A DNA stretch of 58,194 nucleotides from Candidatus Nomurabacteria bacterium (GTDB taxonomy: Bacteria > Patescibacteriota > Minisyncoccia > Phycocordibacterales > UBA9973), in assembly GCA_025361085.1 (NCBI GenBank), contig JANYAX010000001.1, forward strand, positions 1 to 58,194, written 5' to 3'. Positions 209-51,958 of the stretch are shown here, piece after piece (the stretch's first letter is position 1; the number at the start of each line of letters is the position of its first letter). The notes under the pieces are model-generated. The model searched no databases. It was given only the letters and a program-made list of their open reading frames with translations, and was not told the DNA's origin. Both the position numbers and the translations under genes were made by a program.

Positions 209-1210
209 TTAAATGTAAAAATCTTTTAGTTCTTTTGTCACTTTTTCGTCTAGAAGATTTTTTTCGGCCATCCACTCATCACAAAAAGCATGCGTTAAAT
301 AACTTTCTCCACTGTCGCCGATAATCAAAACCATCTTTTTTATTTTTTCCGAGACTGGTTCGCTCTTAATAAATTTCATGGCGTAATAGAGCATCATTCC
401 ACTTGAGTCTCCGACGAGTAATCCTTTACTCTCGGCGAAAAATCTCATAGTGTTGAATGCCTCTTTGTCGGCAACATAATCGTGTTTATCAAATAGAGCA
501 GTGTCGATATTTTTTGGCAATATTGCTCCAGCCGGGTAACCAGGTCCTGAAATGAAATATCCGTGCCCATGTGGCGAGAAGTGGCTCGAGCCCTTTGGTT
601 CAAGCGCTATTATTTTGGTTTGCCCATGCTCTTTGATATATTGCCCTGATCCAGAAAGGGAACTGCCAGTTCCTATTGTCCCGACCAAGTAATCTGCATC
701 TGGAACTTGCTCAAAAATTTCTTTTCCCAAAGTATCATAGTAACCTTTAGGGTTTTCAGGGTTGTCGTATTGGTCGAGATTGATACCACCTCTTTCTTCT
801 GCTAATCGCTTGGCCGTTTTACGGCGGATATCTACCAAGTGCCCACCCTTCTTGTCCTCATCATCACTGCAAAAATGCAATTTCCCGCCGTAAGCTTTGA
901 TAGATCGTAGTTTGTCGGCTGGGGCATGTTCATCGACAATGGCGGTAAATTTGTACCCTCGAGCCGCCGAGAGCATAGCCAGAGCTTTGGCCGTGTTGCC
1001 AGAAGAAGATTCAAAAATTTCCATCCCTCTTTTTAATTTACCAGTTTTTTCAGCCCAATCCATCAGAGATCTAGCGGTTCGATCTTTAAAACTTCCAGCT
1101 GGGTTAAAATATTCTAATTTTAGATAAATCTTCCAATCGGGTCTTGCTGTTTTTATCTCTAGTATGGGTGTGTTGCCGATGAGTTCATCGAGTTTGGTAT
1201 TTATGGTCAT
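209..1210 (-). CDS. PLP-dependent cysteine synthase / cystathionine beta-synthase family enzyme
   Basis: 333-aa ORF with PLP-lysine motif NPAGSFKDR, SSGNTA and the GTIGTGSS glycine loop typical of the Trp-synthase-beta-like fold. Confidence 0.8.
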   Translation of the reverse strand: MTINTKLDELIGNTPILEIKTARPDWKIYLKLEYFNPAGSFKDRTARSLMDWAEKTGKLKRGMEIFESSSGNTAKALAMLSAARGYKFTAIVDEHAPADKLRSIKAYGGKLHFCSDDEDKKGGHLVDIRRKTAKRLAEERGGINLDQYDNPENPKGYYDTLGKEIFEQVPDADYLVGTIGTGSSLSGSGQYIKEHGQTKIIALEPKGSSHFSPHGHGYFISGPGYPAGAILPKNIDTALFDKHDYVADKEAFNTMRFFAESKGLLVGDSSGMMLYYAMKFIKSEPVSEKIKKMVLIIGDSGESYLTHAFCDEWMAEKNLLDEKVTKELKDFYI

Positions 1211-1277
1211 TTTTCTATTATATAGGGGTTTTATATTTTTGTTAATTGTGATATTTTTATTAGAGTGGAATTACATT

Positions 1278-1314
1278 CCCTCTACTTTATAAGGAGAGGG
1301 GCAGGGGGTGAGGT
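1278..1314 (+). repeat. G+C-rich repeat copy in the prfB leader (CCCTCTACTTTATAAGGAGAGGGGCAGGGGGTGAGGT)
   Basis: Matches 1680-1717 inside prfB with 3 substitutions and one 1-nt indel; its 3' end (GAGGTG, about 10 nt before ATG 1327) is the only Shine-Dalgarno-like sequence for prfB. Confidence 0.85.
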
Positions 1315-1326
1315 GGATTAATTAAT

Positions 1327-2280
1327 ATGGAAAACAATACCGAAGAATTAAAGAAAGAAATAGAAACTCTTGAAGGCCAGATGATGGAAGGGAATTTCTG
1401 GAATGATAAAACAAAAGCGCAAGCGACGATAAAGCGGATTGCTTTTTTGAAAGACGAAATACTTGGTGCGCAGAAATACGATAAGGGGAATGCTATCCTT
1501 TCGATTCTCTCTGGTGCTGGTGGTGATGATGCCGAAGACTTTTCGGCCATGCTTCTAAAGATGTACATGAAGTATATTGAGAAAATGAATTGGAAGTGGA
1601 GTGTGATTCATGAGAATAAAAATGACAATGGTGGTTATCGCAATGTATCAATCGAGGTCAAGGGGGTTGGTTCTAAACCCCCTCTCCTTACTAAGGAGAG
1701 GGGGCAGGGGGTGAGGTCTTTTGCGGGGGTGACTGGTCCTTACGGCACACTGAAAAATGAATCTGGTGTTCATCGTTTAGTCCGCATTTCTCCATTTAAT
1801 GCGAATGCCAAGCGTCACACTTCTTTTTCTTTAATTGAAGTCATTCCAGAATTTGAGAAAAGTGATAAAGTTATCGAGATTCCACAGAACGATCTCAAGA
1901 TCGAACTTTCTAAATCGGGGGGCCCTGGCGGGCAGAATGTGAACAAGCGCGAGACGGCTGTTCGAGTAGTTCATTTGCCGACAAACTTATCTGTCCATGT
2001 TACTTCTGAGCGTTCTCAAGAGCAAAATAAAGAAAAAGCACTTGAGATGCTCAAAGGTAAACTTTTCAAGAAAAGAGAAGAAGACAAAAAGCGCGAAAAA
2101 GACGGTTTATCTATTTCCAAGACGACAGACATCGAATGGGGGAACCAAATCCGCTCTTATGTGCTTCATCCTTATAAAATGGTCAAAGATCATCGCACGG
2201 GAGTTGAAGTTGGTAATGTTGACTCCGTCCTTTTAGATGGTGCGATTGATGAATTTATTGAAGCCGAACGTGATTTGTGA
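1327..2280 (+). CDS. prfB: Peptide chain release factor 2
   Basis: 317-aa ORF with SPF (RISPFNANAKRHTSF) and GGQ (SGGPGGQNVNKRETAVR) motifs; single uninterrupted ORF; carries an insert of about 20 aa encoded by the repeat at 1678-1717. Confidence 0.9.
   Translation: MENNTEELKKEIETLEGQMMEGNFWNDKTKAQATIKRIAFLKDEILGAQKYDKGNAILSILSGAGGDDAEDFSAMLLKMYMKYIEKMNWKWSVIHENKNDNGGYRNVSIEVKGVGSKPPLLTKERGQGVRSFAGVTGPYGTLKNESGVHRLVRISPFNANAKRHTSFSLIEVIPEFEKSDKVIEIPQNDLKIELSKSGGPGGQNVNKRETAVRVVHLPTNLSVHVTSERSQEQNKEKALEMLKGKLFKKREEDKKREKDGLSISKTTDIEWGNQIRSYVLHPYKMVKDHRTGVEVGNVDSVLLDGAIDEFIEAERDL
1678..1717 (+). repeat. In-frame G+C-rich palindromic element inside prfB
   Basis: CCCCCTCTCCTTA-C-TAAGGAGAGGGGG is a perfect 13-bp inverted repeat followed by CAGGGGGTGAGGT; it encodes KPPLLTKERGQGVRS between IEVKG and PYGTLKNESGVHRLVR; second copy at 1278-1314. 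Confidence 0.85.
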
Positions 2281-6556: not shown

Positions 6557-7129
6557 ATGGAAAATTTAAATAAAAAAATTATATATGATGAACAAGGGTT
6601 GAAACCAGGTTCAGATTATGAAAAGGGCCAGTGGAAAAATATTGCCGTTCATAATGATAAAGAGGTCAGAGGTTTCTTCGGAGAATATCGTTTTTTGAAC
6701 AATTTTTGGCCAGCTAGAGTTATATTAGAAGATGATGAATACCATGCGACAGAAAATGCTTATCAAGCTTCAAAATATAAAAAAGAGATGAGAGAATATT
6801 TTAAAACTTGCACCCCTAAAGAGGCTGTAGCTTTCGTTCGAGATAACCCCATGGGTATATATACAAGAGAAGAATGGGATAAAGTTAAATTAGAAATAAT
6901 GAGAAAATTGTTAGAGCAAAAATTTGATAAAAATTTAAATCCTGAAAACTATAAAAAATTAATAGAAACCGGAGATAAATATCTTGAGGAGACAAATTAT
7001 TGGGAAGACAAATATTGGGGCGTAAGCAAAATTGACGCTAGTGAAAATGGAATCGGCGAAAATAATCTCGGCAAATTATTAATGGAAATCAGAAGTGAGT
7101 ATCATGAGGCAAGACCTCACGATATATAA
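6557..7129 (+). CDS. NADAR (YbiA/DUF1768)-family protein
   Basis: 190 aa; FFGEYRFLNNFWP, ENAYQASKY and YWG motifs recalled from the family; ATG lies 1 nt after the tRNA CCA end. Confidence 0.75.
   Translation: MENLNKKIIYDEQGLKPGSDYEKGQWKNIAVHNDKEVRGFFGEYRFLNNFWPARVILEDDEYHATENAYQASKYKKEMREYFKTCTPKEAVAFVRDNPMGIYTREEWDKVKLEIMRKLLEQKFDKNLNPENYKKLIETGDKYLEETNYWEDKYWGVSKIDASENGIGENNLGKLLMEIRSEYHEARPHDI
7034..7099 (+). repeat. Left copy of a 66-bp direct repeat (3' part of the NADAR gene)
   Basis: 65 of 66 nt identical to 9218-9283. Confidence 0.95.
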
Positions 7130-9211: not shown

Positions 9212-9313
9212 AAAACCGACGCCAGTGAAAATGGAATCGGCGAAAATAATCTCGGCAAATTATTAATGGAAATCAGAAGTGAGATCAAAAATGGCCAACA
9301 ACTTGTTGTATAA
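9212..9313 (+). pseudogene. Displaced 3' fragment of a NADAR gene (contains the right copy of the 66-bp repeat, 9218-9283)
   Basis: Reads KTDASENGIGENNLGKLLMEIRSEIKNGQQLVV-stop in the same frame as the intact gene but has no upstream coding body. Confidence 0.8.
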
Positions 9314-31250: not shown

Positions 31251-31676
31251 ATGAAAGTAGAGATCAAAAGGATAGATAAATCATTGTCATTACCCGAATA
31301 CCATACGTCTGGAGCTGTAGCTTTTGACTTATATTCAAGGTTTGATGGTATCGTTGCTCCCAAAGCATTAGAAAGATTTCCAACAAATATAATTGTTAAA
31401 ATTCCTGATGGTTATATGCTTGAGATTAAGGATCGTTCCAGTACACTAAAACGAAAAGGGCTTTTGGTAAGTACTGGCTATATAGATAATGATTTTCATG
31501 GAGAGAATGATGAAATTTTGCTCCAGGTATATAATTTGACTGATAATGATGTTAAAATAGAAAAAGGGGAACGTTTAGGCCAAGGTGTTTTTATTAAGGT
31601 AGAAAAGGCAGAATGGGAAGAAGTAGAAAAAATGAAAGAAGTATTTCGTAGTGGTTTTGGTTCAACAGGATATTAA
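31251..31676 (+). CDS. dut: dUTP diphosphatase
   Basis: GYIDNDFHGE and C-terminal RSGFGSTGY motifs. Confidence 0.85.
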   Translation: MKVEIKRIDKSLSLPEYHTSGAVAFDLYSRFDGIVAPKALERFPTNIIVKIPDGYMLEIKDRSSTLKRKGLLVSTGYIDNDFHGENDEILLQVYNLTDNDVKIEKGERLGQGVFIKVEKAEWEEVEKMKEVFRSGFGSTGY

Positions 31677-31677
31677 T

Positions 31678-33522
31678 ATGAAAGAACAAATAGAAAATTT
31701 AATAAAAGAAACTTTAAAAAATCTTGGGATTCCTGCCTGCGCAGGCAGGGAAGATTGTGATTTTTCTGTTGAACATCCTGATGATTTTAATAATGGTGAT
31801 TATTCGACGAATGTGGCGATGGTGAGTGCCAAAAGTTTAAAAACAAATCCAAAAGAATTAGCGGAAAAGATTGTTATAACCCTTCGGCAAGCTCAGGGTG
31901 AATTTCCTGGAATACAGGAAATTCAGATTGCGGGGCCTGGGTTTATAAATTTTTATTTATCTCGAAATTTTTTTACAGAAAGTATAAATAAAATTTTGAA
32001 GGAAGGAGAAAATTGGGGGAAAAATAATTCATCTCTTGGTAAAAAAATAATGGTTGAGTATACCGACCCGAACCCTTTTAAGCCATTTCACATCGGGCAC
32101 TTAATGACGAATGCAATAGGAGAATCGATTTCTCGTATTGTTGAATTCTCTGGAGCTAAAACTGTCAGGGCAAATTATCAGGGCGATATTGGGCCACATG
32201 TAGCTAAAGCGATATATGGTCTTATGAAATTTGGCATGCCTGATGAATTAAAATTAACCGCGGAAAAAGCAGAATATATTGGTGAATGTTATTCGAAAGG
32301 AAGTAATTTATATGATACTGATGAGAATGTTAAAAAAGAAATTGATGAGATAAATAAGAAGATTTATGATAAATCAGATGTTGAGATAAACAAAATTTAT
32401 GATTGGGGGCGAAAAGTAACTCTCGATGCTTTTGAAGAAATATACAAAATTCTTGGAACGAAATTCAATCATTATTTTTTTGAAAGCGAGATGGCGCCTA
32501 TTGGAGAGGAGATTGTTCGCGCAAATGTTATGGCCGAAGGTCCCGAGAGTAACCGAGGGATATTTGAAGATTCAAATGGCGCAATAATTTTCCATGGTGA
32601 GAATTATGACAAGAAACTTCACACACGAGTGTTTATCAATTCACAAGGCCTTCCAACATATGAGACAAAAGAAATTGGTCTCACAATGACTAAATTTGAA
32701 AAAGAAAATCCCGATCTTTCTATTGTTATCACTGCCACAGAGCAAGCCGAATATATGAAAGTAGTTCAGAAAGCTATTTCGTTACTTCACCCAGATTTAG
32801 AGAGTAGAATGAAGCATATTACTCACGGTATGATGCGCTTCGCTTCTGGTAAAATGTCGTCTAGAAAAGGGAATGTAGTCACAGGTGAATCACTTTTGCG
32901 TGATTCGATGGATGTAGTTTATGAAAAAGTTAAAGATCGTGATTTAGAAAATGGAGAAAAAAAGAAAATTGCCGAAGTAGTTGGAGTATCTGCTCTCAAA
33001 TATTCAATTCTAAGGTCGTCTATTGGTAGTGATATTATTTACGATTTTGAAAAATCTATTTCTTTTGATGGTGATTCTGGTCCATATTTACAATACACTG
33101 CAGTCCGAGCAAATTCGATACTCGATAAAGCAAAAGATTTTAAAACCCCCTCGGCTGTTGGCCACTCCTTACAGGAGCAGTACACTTCTCACGTTTTGAA
33201 TACAAAACATTCAAAGTCTTGCGCTTCGGATCCCATCCCGAAGCTCACCCCCTTATCAGGGGGAGAAGTAAATTCTCTTGAAAAATTAATTTATCAATTC
33301 GAAGAAATTGTTGAGTACTCATATGAGAGGCTAGAACCGCATCATATAGCGGTTTATCTTACCGAACTCGCAAGTAGTTTCAATACTTTTTATGGTAATA
33401 CAAAAATTCTTGATGATGGAAACAAAAATATAGCTTATCACTTAGATCTAGTAAAAGCATTTTACCAAACAATGAAAAACGGCCTCTGGCTCTTGGGTAT
33501 TGAAGTTCCAGAGAAAATGTAA
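31678..33522 (+). CDS. argS: Arginine--tRNA ligase
   Basis: PNPFKPFHIGHLMTNAIGE (HIGH) and C-terminal YLTELASSFNTFY; ATG 31678 is adjacent to the dut stop. Confidence 0.9.
   Translation: MKEQIENLIKETLKNLGIPACAGREDCDFSVEHPDDFNNGDYSTNVAMVSAKSLKTNPKELAEKIVITLRQAQGEFPGIQEIQIAGPGFINFYLSRNFFTESINKILKEGENWGKNNSSLGKKIMVEYTDPNPFKPFHIGHLMTNAIGESISRIVEFSGAKTVRANYQGDIGPHVAKAIYGLMKFGMPDELKLTAEKAEYIGECYSKGSNLYDTDENVKKEIDEINKKIYDKSDVEINKIYDWGRKVTLDAFEEIYKILGTKFNHYFFESEMAPIGEEIVRANVMAEGPESNRGIFEDSNGAIIFHGENYDKKLHTRVFINSQGLPTYETKEIGLTMTKFEKENPDLSIVITATEQAEYMKVVQKAISLLHPDLESRMKHITHGMMRFASGKMSSRKGNVVTGESLLRDSMDVVYEKVKDRDLENGEKKKIAEVVGVSALKYSILRSSIGSDIIYDFEKSISFDGDSGPYLQYTAVRANSILDKAKDFKTPSAVGHSLQEQYTSHVLNTKHSKSCASDPIPKLTPLSGGEVNSLEKLIYQFEEIVEYSYERLEPHHIAVYLTELASSFNTFYGNTKILDDGNKNIAYHLDLVKAFYQTMKNGLWLLGIEVPEKM
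31732..31749. repeat. Perfect 18-nt palindrome CCTGCCTGCGCAGGCAGG inside argS
   Basis: Self-complementary; read as PACAGR; near-identical copies at 34891-34908 and 47553-47570. Confidence 0.9.
33145..33267 (+). repeat. Composite G+C-rich insertion of about 120 nt in the argS C-terminal region
   Basis: Four successive hairpins (CTCCT-TAC-AGGAG, GTTTTG-AATA-CAAAAC, CTTCGG-N8-CCGAAG, CCCCC-TTATCA-GGGGG); its ends match the metG element at 46537-46576. Confidence 0.8.
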
Positions 33523-44321: not shown

Positions 44322-45389
44322 ATGGAGGAAAAACCAAGGAACATGCATATAAGCATCTCAACAAATACTCTCATAAAGATAATTCTTCTGGGGGTTTTGG
44401 TCTTTGCAGTAATTAAATTAATAAATGTGGTTCTTATTATCCTCGTTGCGATAGTGCTCGCTTCATTTGTAGAATCAGGTGTAAAAAAGCTTAAGAAATA
44501 TATAAAGAATAGGTCTGTTGCCGTTTTCCTTATTTATATAGTTGCTCTCATAATAATCGTTACTTTATCATCTATCTTTATGCCAGTGTTCATAGAGGAG
44601 GTGTCTGCACTTGTGACTTCTCTTTCCCAATATATTCCACATGGTAGTATTTTAAATACCTTCCAGCCCGATACGATTTCTGGGGCAAAAGATGTTGTTA
44701 CTAGCTTATCTCACAACGCCTCTCTCGGTGATGTCATCAAAAGTGTTCAATCTTTGATATCAAGTCTTTCTGGTGGTTTCTTGGACATTTTTAATGGAGC
44801 ATTTGGTGGTGTTCTTAACTTTATATTGATTGTAATTATTTCATTTTATCTATCGGTTACTGAAAAGGGGATCGAAAATTTCTTGCGTGTTATTACTCCA
44901 AGAAAAAGTGAAGAATACATAATAGGTCTATGGCAAAGAACAGAACATAAAATCGGTCTGTGGATTCAAGGACAGATGCTTTTGGGTCTTATAATCGGAG
45001 TGTTGGCATACCTTGGGCTTACGATAATCGGAGTTAAATATTCACTGGTCTTGGCAATCATAACTGCTTTCTGTGAACTTGTTCCTTTTGGGATATATCT
45101 TGCCATTATTCCCGTTGTGATATTTAGCTTTCTTGATGGTGGTGTTACAATGGCGGCACTTTCATTTGGTTTGTATTTTATTCTTCATCAATTCGAAAAT
45201 TATTTGATTTATCCTTTGATAATCAAAAAAGTTATAGGCATATCTCCACTTGTTGTCGTACTTTCTATTATTATAGGGATAGAGTTGGCTGGATTTTTTG
45301 GTGTGATTCTTGCGATACCGACAGCTGTCTGTTTATTAGAATTTTTAGATGATCTTGAGAAGAAGAAAGTTCTTGCTCGAGAAACATAA
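44322..45389 (+). CDS. AI-2E (PerM/UPF0118) family transporter
   Basis: Multi-TM protein with the family-typical C-terminal half; start uncertain (TTG 44286 or ATG 44322). Confidence 0.75.
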   Translation: MEEKPRNMHISISTNTLIKIILLGVLVFAVIKLINVVLIILVAIVLASFVESGVKKLKKYIKNRSVAVFLIYIVALIIIVTLSSIFMPVFIEEVSALVTSLSQYIPHGSILNTFQPDTISGAKDVVTSLSHNASLGDVIKSVQSLISSLSGGFLDIFNGAFGGVLNFILIVIISFYLSVTEKGIENFLRVITPRKSEEYIIGLWQRTEHKIGLWIQGQMLLGLIIGVLAYLGLTIIGVKYSLVLAIITAFCELVPFGIYLAIIPVVIFSFLDGGVTMAALSFGLYFILHQFENYLIYPLIIKKVIGISPLVVVLSIIIGIELAGFFGVILAIPTAVCLLEFLDDLEKKKVLARET

Positions 45390-45390
45390 T

Positions 45391-46875
45391 ATGCAAAAAA
45401 CATTTTTCTTAACCACAACGCTACCTTACGTAAATGCGCCACTTCACATGGGGCATGCTCTTGAATTTGTGCGAGCCGATACGATAGCTCGCTACAAGAA
45501 ACTTTCTGGTTTTGATGTCTATTTTAATACGGGGACAGATGAACACGGTTTAAAAATATTTGAAAAAGCTAAAGAAAAAGGTTTAACTGCTCAAGAATTT
45601 GTCGACCAAGGGTTTGAAGTTTTTAAAGAACAATTGAAAATGTTTGGGGTAAGTGATGATATTCACTTTATTCGTACAACCGACAAGAGCCATGAAAAAG
45701 CCGCGCAAGAATTCTGGGTTAGGGTGAATGACAATGGTTATATCTATAAAAAGAATTATGAAGCTAAATATTGTGTAGGATGTGAAAGTGGAAAGACTGA
45801 TAGTGAGCTTGTAGATGAGAGATGCTCGCTCCACCCAGATGTTGAATTGAAAATAATTAAAGAAGAAAATTATTTTTTTAAATATTCAGAATTTGGAGAA
45901 AAGCTCCTAGCTTTTTACGAAAAGAACCCTAATTTTGTTGTCCCAGATTTTCGTTTTCATGAGATAAAAAACTTTGTTAAAAATGGTTTGCAAGATTTTT
46001 CTATTTCACGTTTGAAAGAAAAAATGCCGTGGGGGATAGAGGTACCAGGAGATAATACTCAAGTAATGTATGTTTGGTTTGACGCGCTTGTAAATTATAT
46101 CTCGACACTTGGTTGGCCCTTCGCTGATGCTCAGGACCTTCGGCCCTTCGAACAAAATAATTTTGAAAAATACTGGGTGAATGGGAATCCAACGCAATAT
46201 TGTGGAAAAGATAATACTCGTTTTCAGGCGGCTATGTGGCAAGCAATGCTTATGGCTGCGGGTGTTCCAAATTCACATCAAATAATCGTAAATGGGTTTA
46301 TCACAGGAGAAGGGGGAATTCGTATGTCTAAATCACTTGGTAATGGTGTAGACCCACGCGATATTGTGGGTGAATATGGCACAGATGCGCTCCGATATTT
46401 CTTGCTTCGCGAAGTCGGAAGTTTTGAAGATAGCCCATTTACGGTTGAACGATTCAAAGATGCTTACAATTCAGGATTAGCAAACGGGTTGGGAAATTTG
46501 ACGTCGAGGATTTTGACTTTATCGGAAAAATATTTGACCCCCTCTGCCTCCGGCATCTCCCCCTTAGCAGGGGGAGAAAAATACGTTTTTCATACAGAGT
46601 TTACTAATCACTTAGAAAATTTTGATATTCAAAAAGCAACAGAATTTATTTGGCAGAAAATAGGAGATCTAGATAAGAGAATTCAAGAAACAGAACCGTT
46701 CAAGGTTGTGAAAGTAGATATTGAGAAAGGGAAAGAATTGATAAAAGAAAATATCGAGAGACTTTATGAAATATCCGAATTATTAATTCCCATGCTTCCA
46801 GAAACTTCACAAAAAATTCAAGAACTCATAAAACAAAACAAAAAACCAGAAGCCCCATTGTTTTTTAGAAAATAA
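45391..46875 (+). CDS. metG: Methionine--tRNA ligase
   Basis: PYVNAPLHMGHA (HIGH) and RMSKSLGN (KMSKS); ATG 45391 follows the previous stop. Confidence 0.9.
   Translation: MQKTFFLTTTLPYVNAPLHMGHALEFVRADTIARYKKLSGFDVYFNTGTDEHGLKIFEKAKEKGLTAQEFVDQGFEVFKEQLKMFGVSDDIHFIRTTDKSHEKAAQEFWVRVNDNGYIYKKNYEAKYCVGCESGKTDSELVDERCSLHPDVELKIIKEENYFFKYSEFGEKLLAFYEKNPNFVVPDFRFHEIKNFVKNGLQDFSISRLKEKMPWGIEVPGDNTQVMYVWFDALVNYISTLGWPFADAQDLRPFEQNNFEKYWVNGNPTQYCGKDNTRFQAAMWQAMLMAAGVPNSHQIIVNGFITGEGGIRMSKSLGNGVDPRDIVGEYGTDALRYFLLREVGSFEDSPFTVERFKDAYNSGLANGLGNLTSRILTLSEKYLTPSASGISPLAGGEKYVFHTEFTNHLENFDIQKATEFIWQKIGDLDKRIQETEPFKVVKVDIEKGKELIKENIERLYEISELLIPMLPETSQKIQELIKQNKKPEAPLFFRK
46115..46152 (+). repeat. In-frame 38-nt G+C-rich element in metG
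   Basis: GGCCCTTCGCTGATGCTCAGGACCTTCGGCCCTTCGAA; the 16-nt core GCTCAGGACCTTCGGC is identical to the inverted intergenic copy at 48104-48141; the 5' half matches glyA 29528-29555. Confidence 0.85.
46537..46576 (+). repeat. In-frame C/G-run hairpin element in metG
   Basis: ACCCCCTCTGCCTCCGGCAT-CTCCCCC-TTAGCA-GGGGGAG; encodes TPSASGISPLAGGE; the ends match the argS insertion (TPSAVG...TPLSGGE). Confidence 0.85.
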
Positions 46876-46879
46876 AATA

Positions 46880-46912
46880 CCCTCACCTGGCCTCCCCCTA
46901 CATAGGGGGAAG
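46880..46912. repeat. Intergenic C/G-run hairpin element between metG and the TatD gene
   Basis: TCCCCCTA-CA-TAGGGGGA (46893-46910), perfect 8-bp arms. Confidence 0.8.
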
Positions 46913-46956
46913 TGCTCCAACTTTGTTGGAGTGGTGGTGGATATTTAAATAATACC

Positions 46957-47895
46957 ATGCCCAAATACATTGATATACATTGCCATACGAATTTTAAGAT
47001 TTTCGAGAATGATCGAGATGAGGTTATTCGACGTGCGCTCGATAATGACACCTGGCTTATAAATATTGGTACACAATATGATACTTCGAAAAAAGCAGTC
47101 GAAATGACAAGAGAATATCCTGACGGAGTTTTTGCAACTATTGGCCTCCACCCGATTCATACAGACAAGTCATATCATGATGAGAGTGAGATTGGCGAGG
47201 GTGGTCAAGAATTTTCTTCTCGTGGAGAAATTTTTGATAAAGAAAAATATAAAGAATTAGCTAAACAAGGGAAAGTTGTAGGAATAGGTGAGTGTGGACT
47301 CGATTATTATCACATTGGTTCGACAAGCTCACCACAAAGGGAACTAGAATTTATTGAAAAACAAAAAACGGCATTTATTGCACAGATTGAACTTGCAAAT
47401 GAACTTGATTTACCACTTATGCTTCACGTGCGCAATGGTTCACTTCGTCGGGCTCAGTGTAAACTCAGCTCACCACAGGCAACCGAAAAGAACGCGTATT
47501 TTGATGTTTATGAATTATTAAAAAAGTATTCAAAAAGGATTAATGAAAAAGGCCTGCCTGCGCAGACAGGAGTCTCGCATTTTTTTGCTGGTAGTGTAGA
47601 AGATATGAAAAGATTTATCGAGATAGGAGTATATATTTCTTTTGCTGGTCCAATAACTTATAAACCAAAGCCAGAAATTTGTGACTATATAGGAGTGATA
47701 AAAGAAACCTCGCTAGATATGATTCTTGCCGATACAGACAGTCCATATGTGGCCCCGGTGCCCCATAGGGGGGAAAGGAATGAACCAGTGAATGTATCTG
47801 ATATAGTGGCCAAAATAGCCGAAATTAAGGGGATTAGCGAGGCTGAAGCATCTAAATCGATACTTTCAAACGCCCAAAAACTCTTTAATATATAA
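46957..47895 (+). CDS. TatD-family metal-dependent hydrolase
   Basis: IDIHCH, GECGLDYY, SHFFAG and DTDSPYVAPVPHRGERNEP motifs; about 55 aa longer than typical because of three G+C-rich patches. Confidence 0.85.
   Translation: MPKYIDIHCHTNFKIFENDRDEVIRRALDNDTWLINIGTQYDTSKKAVEMTREYPDGVFATIGLHPIHTDKSYHDESEIGEGGQEFSSRGEIFDKEKYKELAKQGKVVGIGECGLDYYHIGSTSSPQRELEFIEKQKTAFIAQIELANELDLPLMLHVRNGSLRRAQCKLSSPQATEKNAYFDVYELLKKYSKRINEKGLPAQTGVSHFFAGSVEDMKRFIEIGVYISFAGPITYKPKPEICDYIGVIKETSLDMILADTDSPYVAPVPHRGERNEPVNVSDIVAKIAEIKGISEAEASKSILSNAQKLFNI
47317..47340 (+). repeat. In-frame G+C-rich patch 1 in the TatD gene
   Basis: GGTTCGACAAGCTCACCACAAAGG (GSTSSPQR); shares TTCG-CAAGCTCA with argS 31880-31902 and AGCTCACCACA with 47437-47482. 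Confidence 0.6.
47437..47482 (+). repeat. In-frame G+C-rich patch 2 in the TatD gene
   Basis: GGTTCACTTCGTCGGGCTCAGTGTAAACTCAGCTCACCACAGGCAA (GSLRRAQCKLSSPQA). Confidence 0.6.
47553..47570. repeat. 18-nt palindrome copy (CCTGCCTGCGCAGACAGG) in the TatD gene
   Basis: 17 of 18 nt identical to 31732-31749; read as LPAQTG. Confidence 0.85.
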
Positions 47896-49494: not shown

Positions 49495-49544
49495 ATGCTT
49501 GATTTATGATATACTTAATTTATTATCAATTATATTATTACAAT

Positions 49545-51191
49545 ATGAAAAAAATATTATTTGGGTTGTTTGTTTTAGGGTTTATGATGGTTAGTTCACA
49601 CGTTCATGCAGCAGATGAAGTGGCACCAATGCCTCCTGATCTTATAGTCCAAGATTTCTCTTGGTACCCACTAACTCCGGTTGCTACATATACTCCAGAT
49701 GTCACTACCTCAGAGGGATATATTCATGGGAATGTGACAATAAAAAATATAGGCAATTCCTCGATCACTTTACCAGAGGGGATGGGCGTTTACTTATACA
49801 AGAGTGATGAGAGTAATATTGTAGGAGGTTTTTCTTTGGGGAAAGAGATTACTACACTATTTCCAGGTGGAATAAAAACATACACGTTTACATCTACTGC
49901 GGGTCCAAATATCACTGAAAATCCTGGAACTTTTGATCTAAAAATGGTTGTCGATGATCCAAGAGTTAGCACAAATTCTTATGGTCTTGTTTATGAATCA
50001 AATGAAGATAATAATACACTCACTAAACAAATAACAATTAAGGAGGGAGAAGTATCAAGACCTTCAATTACAATTTTATCTCCAAATGGAGGAGAAACAT
50101 ATGTTAAAGGTGAGCCAATAAAAATTCTTTTGTCAGGAGGTCCGTATTTAGCGAAAGTTGGAATTGTTTCTCCAGATTTTGATCCTAATAAAATAGAAAG
50201 TGATAGTAATGATGTAAACTGGCTTCCTGTATCAACCGAGAGAGGAGTGTTGCAATACCTTTCTTGGGATGGTTCTTCAATAACAGATTTTAATGGAAAT
50301 AAAAATTATTGGATACCAGGAGTCGGTAAACATAAAATTGTAGCAATTAATTACGAAAATTCTTGTTTCAAAGAAGGAATAAGTAAAATAAGTGATTGTG
50401 TTTATGATATAAGTGATAATTATTTCACAATTACTTCTTCTACTGATAGTAATCATGTAAATATTTCTGGGGTTAGTGGCCCACAAACACTTGATGTTGG
50501 GAAAGAAGGAACTTGGAAGGTTACAGCTTCAAGTGGAAATGGGGGGAATTTAGCATATTCTGTAAAATGGGGAGATGAAGTTTACCCTATATATAGAAGT
50601 GAGACAAGCTCAACTGTAACTACTCAACAATCTGCAACATTTACTCACACATATAAAAGTGCTGGTAAATATGAACCAAAGTTTACTGTCATAAGTGAAA
50701 TTGCGGTTGGATGTATTACTACTCCTTGCTATTCTAATCCAGAAAAAGAAATAGTAAGTATTAATGTTAAGGTTGTTGGAACATCATCAGATACTGTAAT
50801 TGATGATTGTCAACCAGGATTTAAATATAGCCCTAAGACTGGTCAGCTTTGTTCAGGAGAAGAAGTAGTTATTGATTGCCAACCAGGGTACAAATATAGT
50901 CCAACAACGGGTCAAGCATGTACAGCTTGGGGTAAGACTTGTTCTTCTTCATCCGCATATGGTTGTAGCGGGAAATTAGACACTACTACACATCCCATCA
51001 AGAAAACTCTTAAAAAAGGAGAGAAGGGTGATGAAGTTAAAATAATTCAAGCCTTACTCAATTTAATTCAAGATGGAGTTTTTGGCTCAGAGACTCAAAA
51101 GAAAGTTATGGAGTGGCAGGCTCAAAATGGTCTTACTCCCGATGGAGTCTTTGGCCATCAGAGTCGAACCAAGGCAGGATTTGCTGATTAG
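49545..51191 (+). CDS. Secreted multidomain cell-surface protein with a PKD-like domain, two Cys-loop mini-repeats and a C-terminal peptidoglycan-binding domain
   Basis: Signal peptide MKKILFGLFVLGFMMVSSHVHA; WGDE...FTHTYKSAGKYEPKFTV (PKD-like); CQPGFKYSPKTGQLC and CQPGYKYSPTTGQAC; PG_binding_1-like GDEVKIIQALL...DGVFG. Confidence 0.75.
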   Translation: MKKILFGLFVLGFMMVSSHVHAADEVAPMPPDLIVQDFSWYPLTPVATYTPDVTTSEGYIHGNVTIKNIGNSSITLPEGMGVYLYKSDESNIVGGFSLGKEITTLFPGGIKTYTFTSTAGPNITENPGTFDLKMVVDDPRVSTNSYGLVYESNEDNNTLTKQITIKEGEVSRPSITILSPNGGETYVKGEPIKILLSGGPYLAKVGIVSPDFDPNKIESDSNDVNWLPVSTERGVLQYLSWDGSSITDFNGNKNYWIPGVGKHKIVAINYENSCFKEGISKISDCVYDISDNYFTITSSTDSNHVNISGVSGPQTLDVGKEGTWKVTASSGNGGNLAYSVKWGDEVYPIYRSETSSTVTTQQSATFTHTYKSAGKYEPKFTVISEIAVGCITTPCYSNPEKEIVSINVKVVGTSSDTVIDDCQPGFKYSPKTGQLCSGEEVVIDCQPGYKYSPTTGQACTAWGKTCSSSSAYGCSGKLDTTTHPIKKTLKKGEKGDEVKIIQALLNLIQDGVFGSETQKKVMEWQAQNGLTPDGVFGHQSRTKAGFAD

Positions 51192-51307
51192 AAAATTTAA
51201 AGATTGTTGCCAAACAGTCCGCAATTTTTGGTTGGGGACTGTTTGTCGTATTTATTTTTAGTATTTAATGATATAATATGAATATTATAAAAATAATTTA
51301 TTGCAAT

Positions 51308-51958
51308 ATGAAAAAAATATTATTTGGGTTGTTTCTGTTCTGCCTTTTCGCATTTGGTTCTCAGGCTCATGCATCGGTTCTAAGTGATGCACTTGCTCAA
51401 ATTAAAAATTTAGAAAATGAAATTGCTCAATTAAAAGCCAATCTCACTGCTTGGGGGTATGTTCCTAGGACTACCACTACCACTACTGCAAACACAAACA
51501 CAAATCTAAAAACGAGTACTGTGATTACTCAATGTAGTGATGGTGTTGATAATGATGGGGATGGTTTAGTAGATGCCAGAGATCCTGGTTGTCATACAGA
51601 TGAAATAGCAAGCAATGTCGCTAGTTATAATCCTAAAATTAATAATGAGGGAACAGTCACGATATCACTACTACCTCAATGTAGTGATGGTGTTGATAAT
51701 GATGGGGATGGTTTAGTAGATGCCAGAGATCCTGGTTGTCATACAGATGAAATAGCAAGCAATGTCACTAGTTATAATCCTAAGTGGACTTTTGAATCAA
51801 CAATTCCAAATGGATGCACAACGACAACAAAATATAGTGTAACCACTGGTCAATTGTGTACTGGAGTAACATACCCTCCGGGTTGTACTTCAATTTATGG
51901 TTACAGTGTTACAACAGGGCAATCGTGTTCTCCTATTGCTATTGCTGCTGCTGATTAG
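51308..51958 (+). CDS. Secreted protein with duplicated DNDGDG calcium-binding-like modules and two Cys-loop mini-repeats
   Basis: Signal peptide MKKILFGLFLFCLFAFGSQAHA; QCSDGVDNDGDGLVDARDPGCH twice; CTTTTKYSVTTGQLC and CTSIYGYSVTTGQSC. Confidence 0.7.
   Translation: MKKILFGLFLFCLFAFGSQAHASVLSDALAQIKNLENEIAQLKANLTAWGYVPRTTTTTTANTNTNLKTSTVITQCSDGVDNDGDGLVDARDPGCHTDEIASNVASYNPKINNEGTVTISLLPQCSDGVDNDGDGLVDARDPGCHTDEIASNVTSYNPKWTFESTIPNGCTTTTKYSVTTGQLCTGVTYPPGCTSIYGYSVTTGQSCSPIAIAAAD
51528..51783 (+). repeat. Near-perfect 109-bp direct duplication with a 147-bp period inside the CDS
   Basis: 51528-51636 versus 51675-51783; single mismatch (51620 g versus 51767 a). Confidence 0.95.

Follow-up and report, generated by a model that had tools for sequence, protein, structure and literature searches.

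The window analysed here is a 58,194-nt stretch of a Candidatus Nomurabacteria contig (JANYAX010000001.1), and near its left end lies prfB, the gene for the release factor RF2 (1327..2280, + strand). The gene is a single ORF of 317 aa with TIGR00020 prfB as its best match; the SPF and GGQ motifs are intact, and domain 1 is short, as it is clade-wide. A programmed frameshift or internal UGA was considered and ruled out, since one continuous ORF aligns with RF2 from its first residues. The locus carries two closely similar elements on the + strand, one in the prfB leader (copy A, 1277-1315; alignment range 1278-1314) and one in frame within prfB itself (copy B, 1678-1716). The first-pass annotation had described the two stretches as nearly identical, and this holds: 3 substitutions and 1 indel separate CCCTCTACTTTATAAGGAGAGGGG-CAGGGGGTGAGGT (A, 1278-1314) from CCCTCTCCTTACTAAGGAGAGGGGGCAGGGGGTGAGGT (B, 1680-1717), an identity of 34/38.

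Each copy consists of three arms. In copy A, arm 1 (CCCTCTACTT, 1278-1287) is followed by a loop (1288-1290), a purine arm 2 (AAGGAGAGGGG, 1291-1301), the spacer CAG (1302-1304) and a mirror arm 3 (GGGGTGAGG, 1305-1313). Copy B is the intact member of the pair, with arm 1 (CCCCCTCTCCTTA, 1678-1690), the loop C1691, arm 2 (TAAGGAGAGGGGG, 1692-1704), the spacer CA (1705-1706) and arm 3 (GGGGGTGAGG, 1707-1716). Its arms 1 and 2 form the perfect 13-bp inverted repeat that had been noted earlier, which begins 2 nt to the left of the start first given for the copy. A partial second copy of arm 3 (GGGGGTGA, 1725..1732, + strand) lies shortly downstream, within a stretch of about 15 nt that encodes residues F132-T136.

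The two copies share one orientation and are separated by 403 nt; a search for further copies found them to be the only clear ones in the window. The 15-mer GGCAGGGGGTGAGGT, allowing up to 3 mismatches, occurs in the window just at 1300 and 1703, and a 24-mer of copy A had no match over 100 shuffles. One degenerate relative is found on the - strand in the spacer between two genes (46880..46914), where a hairpin (CTTCCCCCTA/TAGGGGGAGG) is followed by CCAGGTGAGGG, an arm 3 that mirrors arm 2 poorly. The proximity of A and B, in 58 kb that hold no third clear copy, exceeds the clustering expected from random scatter and leaves some room for a local event or a functional pairing.

The contig derives from a metagenome and G-rich hairpins are error-prone, which might suggest a chimeric join at a G-rich repeat. 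Such an assembly or sequencing artefact has a negligible probability, however: an independent Logan assembly from other runs (SRR23617162), whose contig turned up in 3 samples, matches the window without a difference over 2414 nt, both copies included, the reading frame is intact, and many RF2 genes from independent assemblies carry inserts of a similar kind.

Membership in the triplex-motif family

Judged by architecture and sequence, A and B both belong to the family of the G/C-rich intrastrand triplex motif (BoxC = PIT = TM_ECO). This motif is defined as a pyrimidine arm followed by its purine complement and then by a third, G-rich arm, which runs antiparallel to the purine arm and mirrors it; C-G*G, T-A*A and T-A*T triads are allowed in a stem of 6-15 with at most one mismatch, and the ITxF definition sets loops of 1-6 nt. 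Copy B has all three arms, with 10/10 allowed triads (8 C-G*G, 1 T-A*A and 1 T-A*T). Copy A, with CAG as its spacer, has 9 third-arm triads; its stem counts 8 triads and has a single mismatch in the hairpin (A1284/G1294). We class it as a degenerate member because a loose search found it and a strict search did not. Both copies are short-looped: loop 1 and loop 2 of copy A measure 3 nt each, and in copy B loop 2 is 2 nt, whereas loop 1 comes to 1 nt with the TTA/TAA pairs included and to 7 nt on the 10 triads alone.

The same arms recur far beyond this genome. The 23 E. coli TM_ECO copies share all three, CCCTCTCC(C), GG(G)AGAGGG and GGGTGAGG (PMC4666352, Table 1), and the set CCCTCTCC / GGAGAGGG / GGGTGAGG is also present at more than 180 loci in many phyla, a lower bound in which the arms of the collection matches are set by the search patterns used. 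Exact 21-25-nt matches to GGAGAGGGG(N)CAGGGGGTGAGG were found at 120 or more genome loci, with Chloroflexota, Planctomycetota, Bacteroidota, Patescibacteria, Cupriavidus, Pseudomonas, Synechococcus and others among the matches listed, and a longer pattern added a further 61 metagenome loci, in which a CA spacer and a T tail occur often. The complementary arm CCCCTCTCC stands just upstream in 81-84% of the listed matches, vs 0.6% of control positions. A prfB-specific element was ruled out by these collection scans. In the family the motif also lies in frame in fpg, trxB, mnmE, a CN-hydrolase gene and a Wzy-like gene on other contigs; a 20.9-kb stretch of the relative L186 holds no strict copy.

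Four clean G3 runs, as for a G-quadruplex, are absent from the tracts of A and B, and Rfam gave no family match around the locus up to E = 10. A purine-motif triplex cannot be expressed as nested pairs. Over the whole window, a single tRNA reached the Rfam gathering score. Formation of the triplex in vivo has not been seen even in E. coli, and purine-motif triplexes do not form in RNA (PMC4666352).

The RF2 loop and its inserts

Copy B belongs to a loop insert at codons 114-138 (VGSKPPLLTKERGQGVRSFAGVTGP; 1666..1740, + strand), which places 25 residues between the strand at 104-112 and the helix at 138-145, where related RF2s have the three residues KNA. The first-pass annotation had proposed that about 20 residues are added here to what is normally a short turn, and comparison with other RF2s agrees: copy B adds about 22 residues, solved RF2 chains have 2 residues opposite window residues 114-137, the closest homologues (295 aa) read G-KNA-YG, and a short loop of the G-K-N-A type is present in about 100 of the 120 closest homologues. 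The homologous segment in other phyla that could have spoken against an insertion was not found among diverse RF2 representatives, 139 of 145 of which have 3 residues at this site, vs 25 in the window. AlphaFold gives residues 116-134 a pLDDT below 50, as coil, and the loop is thus predicted to be disordered. Only one of the three sense frames of copy B is open, and it is the frame in use.

The names attached to the nearest RF2 homologues put the host in the Paceibacterota (CPR), and the same loop is filled repeatedly in related lineages. Of 121 related Paceibacterota RF2s, 21 (about 17%) carry some G/C-rich insert there, and the filled alleles are scattered over a neighbour-joining (NJ) tree, mostly as sisters to empty alleles, a distribution that marks the loop as an insertion hotspot. 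At the DNA level several of the inserts are triplex-type repeats of differing sequence (L122, L123, L150 and L186). That of L150 lacks the stretch of about 15 nt encoding F132-T136; its motif core is identical to that of copy B at 40/41 positions, with flanking RF2 coding DNA at 67-69%. The inserts recur at one codon position and in one frame, with a shared junction ...GG(N)-CC(N)-TAT-GG, and random insertion plus selection alone is hard-pressed to explain such a pattern. It hints at targeting of the site, or else at filled alleles that spread by recombination.

Could the loop instead have been filled once, in an ancestor of the Paceibacterota, and then emptied by many precise losses? The basal NJ branches (L150, P0028, P0104 and P0071) are all filled, and the inserts have site, frame and the G-P-Y-G junction in common, as vertical descent would have it. 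We nevertheless consider this history very improbable. With 3 residues, the empty G-K-N-A-Y-G loop matches 139 of the 145 diverse RF2s in length and is for that reason taken as ancestral, dozens of precise losses would each have to restore it, and the inserts comprise several unrelated sequence types. Moreover, the core is 98% identical between lineages whose flanks are 67-69% identical, although the peptide that it encodes is predicted to be disordered.

A closer origin would be a local duplication, in which A was copied from B or B from A, with template switching or gene conversion at replication as possible routes. The short distance, the common orientation and the lack of a third clear copy in 58 kb fit such an event, as do the CA spacer and GGTGAGGT tail that the two copies share and the short, similar direct repeats that flank them (GTGGAATTA / GTGGATTAA around A, GGGGGTTGGTTCT / GGGGGTGACTGGTCCT around B). 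These repeats are imperfect, and they are all that was seen at A and B by way of target-site duplications; firm boundaries are not definable. The duplication is nonetheless unlikely in our estimate: B is closer to the RF2 copy of L150 than to A, the spacer and tail are common family-wide, and A and B differ at informative arm-1 and loop positions.

The prfB leader and translation start

Copy A lies outside any gene, as first proposed; the upstream neighbour, a PALP/cysteine-synthase-like gene, points the other way, with its start at 1210 on the minus strand. Two small ORFs that overlap copy A (1164..1292, + strand; 1287..1568, - strand) were considered as genes that might contain it and set aside as short and unsupported. 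Upstream of the copy is a conserved, promoter-like stretch (1239..1269, + strand; TTGTTA ... TGTGATATTTT) that ends in GTGGA (1265-1269). In the alignment with the syntenic relatives L186 and L122, this GTGGA pairs with the ATGGA of their prfB start, and the leader insertion begins directly after it. Copy A is missing from these alignable leaders, in which the ATG directly follows the conserved region. From this sequence comparison we infer that 1239..1269 may contain a promoter for a leaderless mRNA; the sole + strand site reported by a promoter scan is a weak one upstream of it (1194-1221).

The end of arm 3 of copy A forms the Shine-Dalgarno-like GAGGTG (1310-1315, + strand), 11 nt before the ATG at 1327. 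The earlier claim that this is the only such sequence before the prfB start stands, and the ribosome-binding role attached to it is just plausible: a GGAG/GAGG core precedes 4 of the 56 ORF starts in the window, prfB among them, which equals the background of 5.5%, and no Shine-Dalgarno enrichment is thus seen. Boxes resembling a -10 element are, by comparison, enriched right before starts (11/56 vs 5.7%), a sign that translation here is normally initiated on leaderless mRNAs or independently of a Shine-Dalgarno sequence. GAGGTG may be used as a ribosome-binding site, going by its sequence and position.

The larger claim of the first-pass annotation, that one special repeat plays two roles in prfB, finds no support in these comparisons: A and B are ordinary members of a pan-bacterial BoxC/PIT/triplex-motif family, B is nearer to the RF2 copy of L150 (40/41) than to A (34/38), and the prfB genes of relatives have neither copy. 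A dual-use regulatory element would still be conceivable, with the leader copy as a working ribosome-binding site and the internal copy acting on translation of the same mRNA through Shine-Dalgarno-like pausing, long-range pairing of arm 1 and arm 2 between the copies, or a shorter RF2 started at GTG 1729; it would replace the usual autoregulation of prfB by frameshifting. Its appeal lies in the spacing, with GAGGTG 11 nt before ATG 1327 and GAGGT 11 nt before the in-frame GTG (1729-1731), in the presence of both copies at one gene and of no other clear copy in 58 kb, in a prfB that lacks the frameshift site, and in the strong hairpin of 12 bp that copy B forms when the mRNA segments are folded. 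An internal start at the GTG is speculation, and we regard the dual-use reading as a whole as quite improbable. Neither copy is present in close relatives, no start codon follows the motif in the RF2 copy of L150, Shine-Dalgarno enrichment is absent from this genome, the same repeat occurs in unrelated genes and spacers across phyla, and the fold energies are, against shuffles, ordinary for the composition (z = -0.5 for the leader, -1.3 for the internal segment). A likeness to the known +1 frameshift site of prfB, in which a Shine-Dalgarno-like AGGGGG precedes CUU UGA near codon 26 and the gene falls into two frames, is superficial: both are G-rich, Shine-Dalgarno-like stretches inside prfB, but the window gene has no in-frame UGA and needs no frameshift, and its stretch lies at codon 120-130 rather than about 25 and is absent from relatives.

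Relation to known repeats and DUF559 cassettes

We consider it probable that the prfB pair is selfish or neutral repeat DNA of the triplex-motif family, tolerated in frame in the manner of the Rickettsia palindromic elements (RPEs). Copy B would have landed in, or been copied into, the single RF2 domain 2 loop in which extra residues are tolerated, where its sole stop-free sense frame would yield a disordered loop of about 25 residues at the protein surface, carried without a dedicated function. Copy A would be a separate and more decayed insertion between the conserved promoter-like region and the ancestral start codon, one that probably gave an mRNA with no leader, or a very short one, a leader of about 62 nt. 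This insertion would have been viable because the purine-rich arm 3 happens to put GAGGTG 11 nt before the ATG, ahead of an A/T-rich, unstructured stretch. Selective neutrality of both copies and a leaderless ancestral prfB mRNA fit this account and are presumed in it.

The repeat itself has been known since the 1990s; its names BoxC, PIT element and TM_ECO triplex motif go with Bachellier, Hoyne and Maher 2000 and Holder et al. 2015 (PMC4666352). The window copies resemble it in their three-arm layout, in near-same arms (CCCTCTCC, GGAGAGGG, a 2-3-nt spacer and GGGTGAGG; PMC4666352), in size (34-40 nt), in a family spread over multiple phyla, in variable loops between conserved arms and in lying close together, as pairs of the known repeat often do. 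They differ in the spacer (CA, vs TTA or CCG), in a hairpin lengthened by TTA/TAA pairs in an A/T-rich host, and in the small number of copies, just 2-3 visible in 58 kb. E. coli copies, moreover, are reported to be always intergenic, as copy A is, whereas copy B is translated within an essential gene.

RPEs, as the accounts we draw on describe them, are palindromic repeats that lie in frame in housekeeping genes of a reduced genome; translation runs through them and adds surface peptide that leaves the protein intact, and only stop-free frames survive (Ogata et al. 2000, reviewed in PMC10969869). Copy B shares this in-frame carriage alone: in those accounts RPEs are about 100-150 bp, restricted to Rickettsia, of other sequence and described without a third mirror arm, whereas the window element is 38-40 nt and of another family. 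Our literature search found no paper pairing RPEs with a release factor. MITE- and REP-type elements are likewise small, structured, non-coding scattered repeats, sometimes intragenic and sometimes accidental regulatory signals, with a possible derivation from an enzyme-encoding element, but at A and B neither terminal inverted repeats nor target duplications stand out clearly enough to be defined. We know of no transposase for the triplex-motif family.

DUF559 nuclease genes, E. coli ycjD and the gene for Deinococcus psychrotolerans WP_124874550.1 included, are flanked by inverted copies of the motif, which thus forms the inverted ends of DUF559 cassettes elsewhere; this nuclease gene is the sole candidate partner seen for the repeat. 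The bracketing suggests a possible route of spread. Tentatively, small selfish cassettes that encode a DUF559 (Vsr-like PD-(D/E)XK) nuclease could have BoxC/PIT/triplex repeats as their inverted ends, with solo copies as MITE-like derivatives or footprints; such a system would be able to insert copies in frame, and with a preference for certain sites, into conserved genes, with the RF2 domain 2 loop of Paceibacterota as a recurrent target. If so, DUF559 cassettes would be the long-missing agent behind the repeat, and the prfB copies would be its traces. In the literature searched, no paper was found that connects this motif with either coding regions or DUF559.

In conclusion, the prfB pair is a new setting of a known element and no new regulatory device. 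It extends the triplex-motif repeat to reduced CPR genomes, to in-frame, RPE-like carriage inside essential genes and to repeated uptake by one RF2 loop in related lineages, none of which is reported for the family in the literature searched. Copy A is a small natural case of an inserted repeat that supplies a ribosome-binding-like sequence where the genome hardly uses one. The bracketing of DUF559 genes offers a testable lead on the movement of these repeats, and the inserts in the RF2 loop provide a natural map of its tolerance for extra sequence.

Identity of the repeated element

prfB, which encodes RF2, is a single ORF of 317 aa (1327..2280, plus strand) with SPF and GGQ motifs and TIGR00020 prfB as its best family match; its neighbours are a divergent PALP/cysteine-synthase-like gene (209..1210, minus strand) and, downstream, ftsE and ftsX. 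The first-pass annotation had described a near-identical repeat in the prfB leader and in frame within the gene, and this holds: copy A, in the leader (1278-1314), and copy B, within the gene (1680-1717), differ by 3 substitutions and one 1-nt indel, and copy B contains the perfect 13-bp inverted repeat ascribed to it (1678-1690 / 1692-1704). The pair is real and beyond chance. An assembly artefact is ruled out as the source of this arrangement, because an independent Logan assembly (SRR23617162; contig present in 3 samples) is identical to the window over 2414 nt, both copies included.

What is the element? Scanning GTDB, one genome per species, with the pattern GGAGAGGGG(N0-1)CAGGGGGTGAGG returned at least 120 loci, where chance would yield a few by our rough estimate, even if all genomes were G+C-rich; the matches listed come from Chloroflexota, Planctomycetota, Armatimonadota, Bacteroidota, Acidobacteriota, Patescibacteria, Cupriavidus, Pseudomonas, Hymenobacter and Synechococcus. 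Shortly 5' of 105 of the 129 matches listed stands the complementary arm CCCCTCTCC, as it does for 53/63 matches when metagenomes were scanned with a longer pattern, against just 0.6% of control positions; the unit thus consists of a hairpin and, 3' of it, a G-rich tail that mirrors the hairpin's purine arm. Judged by architecture and sequence, the element is TM_ECO, the G/C-rich intrastrand triplex motif of Holder et al. 2015 (PMC4666352), which had gone first by the name BoxC and then by PIT. It is not represented in Rfam. Copy B matches the motif definition exactly, its third arm (1707-1716) running antiparallel to the second (1695-1704) with 8 G*G, 1 A*A and 1 T*A triads and no mismatches; in copy A the third arm is good but the first has decayed. 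A degenerate hairpin resembling the motif, with a GGTGAGGG tail, lies on the minus strand at 46880-46914, in the spacer of ORFs 45349..46875 and 46912..47895. The window also holds unrelated repeats: a 109-nt unit repeated at 99% identity and 147-nt spacing (51528-51783), 72 nt at 96% identity 2.2 kb apart (7028-7099 / 9212-9283), and a pair of gene starts sharing 76% identity over 83 nt, each reading MKKILFGLF... (49528-49610 / 51291-51373).

The 23 copies in E. coli K-12, of the form CCCTCTCCC-loop-GGGAGAGGG-TTA or CCG-GGGTGAGGG, are intergenic without exception; in vitro the motif folds, as a single strand, into a purine-motif triplex, which was not observed in vivo; neither promoter nor terminator activity was detected, and motif-bearing loci are unusually variable among strains (PMC4666352). 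By contrast, copy B and a set of metagenome copies lie in frame within genes. The metagenome cases comprise mnmE and, in low-G+C uncultivated bacteria and with the motif in either orientation, fpg (loci L125, L143, L173 and L175), trxB (L134), a carbon-nitrogen hydrolase gene (L153) and a gene for a Wzy-like membrane protein (L157, L174); the encoded peptide reads TSPPAPLL.KERG from one strand and APLSLRRGAGGEV or PPLL.KERGQGVR from the other. Because Pfam matches span these insertions and confirm that they lie inside real genes, the rule that holds in E. coli, on this comparison, does not extend to the whole family.

Copy A and translation of prfB

The stretch that separates prfB from the divergent gene can be aligned well to L186 and L122, both syntenic relatives, as far as ...TGTGATATTTT(7-8 nt)ATGGA, where ATGGA is the relatives' prfB start. 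The aligned bases in the window read GTGGA (1265-1269), and ~60 nt, nearly all copy A, separate them from the real ATGGA at 1327, from which the N-terminus (MENNTEEL) again aligns with those of the relatives. Since spacer and N-termini align around it, copy A is an insertion specific to this lineage, placed between the conserved stretch and the prfB start. A putative upstream frame of 18 codons runs from a leaderless-type GTG at 1265, the position of the relatives' prfB ATG, through copy A (VELHSLYFIRRGAGGEVD) to a TAA at 1319-1321, 5 nt 5' of the prfB ATG.

The leaders of L186 and L122 contain no Shine-Dalgarno-like sequence at a usable distance. Within the window, GGAG or GAGG precedes 4/56 ORF starts (background 5.5%), and a strong -10-like (TATAAT-like) hexamer ends 5-10 nt 5' of 11/56 (against 5.7%); because Shine-Dalgarno cores are at background and -10-like boxes are enriched near starts, leaderless or Shine-Dalgarno-independent initiation is suggested to be usual in this genome. 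Insertion of copy A would have given prfB a leader, and GAGGTG (1310-1315) may have kept the gene translatable afterwards. The hexamer described earlier as ribosome-binding-site-like is indeed there, but with such cores at background its role is a putative one. The leader segment has an unexceptional RNA fold.

The RF2 loop as an insertion hotspot

Exactly three residues separate the conserved G from YG in 139 of 145 RF2 representatives (mutually <50% identical), against 25 in the window protein, and solved RF2 structures have 2 residues at the site of window residues 114-137, which bears out the proposal that the internal copy adds residues where other RF2s make a short turn. The nearest homologues (71-82% identical, source names Paceibacterota or Nomurabacteria) mostly have 295 aa and the loop G-K-N-A-Y-G, and because the three-residue length is near-universal, the empty loop is, on these alignments, the ancestral state. 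AlphaFold, with a 60-sequence alignment, places residues 116-134 at pLDDT <50 and without secondary structure, between a strand (104-112) and a helix (138-145); stops interrupt two of copy B's three sense frames, and the remaining, stop-free frame is the one that prfB uses. Given this low confidence and sole usable frame, the insert is predicted to behave as a tolerated, floppy surface loop, as do Rickettsia palindromic elements carried within genes. RF2s of this clade (window 1327-2280 and homologues P0002-P0120) are short, usually 295 aa, have a reduced N-terminal domain and lack a programmed frameshift; the window protein matches the prfB model over residues 48-313 only, at model positions 110-350.

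Exactly this loop carries an insert in 21/121 related RF2s, which are scattered in a neighbour-joining tree and mostly sister to empty alleles, as the window RF2 is to P0002. In L150, L122 and L123 the RF2 gene is interrupted at this same position, and in the same frame, by triplex-type repeats (KPPL..KERG), some with a C-rich outer arm that makes the repeat palindromic; L186 has another hairpin, CTCCCCCT/AGGGGGAG, which a 12-nt spacer separates from a matching mirror arm, GAGGGGGT, and L187 and L188 have further G/C-rich hairpins. G/C-rich palindromes of a second kind, CCTGCCTGCGCAGGCAGG and CCTGCCTGCGCAGACAGG, lie in frame within window ORFs 31651..33522 (at 31732-31749) and 46912..47895 (at 47553-47570), and hairpins of related appearance fill the RF2 loop of relatives such as P0117 (LPAGRQG) and P0015 (LSAQAG).

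Between the window and L150, from another organism, the motif core is identical at 40/41 positions while the RF2 coding DNA, over 267 nt on each side, is 67-69% identical, a poor fit to simple vertical descent of a neutral insert. A core so much more alike than its flanks points to inserts acquired repeatedly from a conserved source, or homogenised. Could copies A and B derive from one another by local duplication? They lie 403 nt apart in identical orientation, with no other clear copy in the 58 kb, where their common 15-mer GGCAGGGGGTGAGGT recurs nowhere else at up to 3 mismatches; this speaks for a local event. However, copy B is nearer to the L150 copy than to copy A (34/38), and the traits that A and B have in common are frequent across the family, so that we regard such a duplication as unlikely. 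The filled alleles have in common the junction GG(N)-CC(N)-TAT-GG, which may stem from selection for a Gly-Pro cap, from targeted insertion, or from recombinational spread of filled alleles.

DUF559 genes beside the motif

A gene for DUF559 (PF04480, Vsr-like nuclease fold) occurs in seven motif-selected loci, in every case 30-330 nt from the motif. DUF559 genes bracketed by inverted motifs are noted in L065 (6152-6648), L085 (375-808), L135 (599-1144), L193 (706-1166), L198 (717-1139), L201 (647-1244) and E. coli (L189; NC_000913.3 1351206-1351760), whose DUF559 gene ycjD has TM_ECO number 9 165 nt 3' of its stop codon. To our knowledge, ycjD is the only DUF559 gene of E. coli K-12. Among 12 DUF559 genes on plasmids and chromids sampled blind to the motif, 7 have one within 400 nt by a strict triplex finder, which found none in 150 kb of control stretches from three of the same replicons. 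Motif sequence varies by taxon and the three-arm mirror design is retained.

The order motif(-), DUF559(+), motif(+) recurs in both Deinococcus loci, Pseudanabaena galeata, L065, L085 and L135, the flanking copies being inverted with the third arm outward. Both Deinococcus loci have an inverted repeat that continues for 17-22 nt past the motif, giving ends of ~55 nt, and one of these cassettes lies between paaD and paaZ. From its sequence layout, DUF559 with its flanking motifs resembles a small cassette whose ends are inverted, suggesting that solo triplex motifs may be its derivatives; because the window contains no DUF559 gene and mobility is conjectural, we offer this origin as a hypothesis. 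In L135 (metagenome contig VFQO010006928.1, ~599-1144) a DUF559 domain with two motifs on either side lies in the G-domain region of mnmE, in the same stop-free frame, resembling an intein-like in-frame insertion but lacking a splicing domain, and in L156 a DUF559 ORF, the motif and trpA share one stop-free frame. Regular arrays of motifs on alternating strands follow the DUF559 gene in Neisseria gonorrhoeae (L195, 1289-1882; period ~281 nt) and Photobacterium (L199, 1155-1841; period ~148 nt).

The double role first proposed for one repeat in prfB needs correcting: the pair does not look like a regulatory device and works in the manner of a Rickettsia palindromic element. It is a further instance of a repeat family already known, in a host group that is new for it and in a new, in-frame setting, and the main weight of the finding lies with the RF2 loop hotspot and the DUF559 lead.
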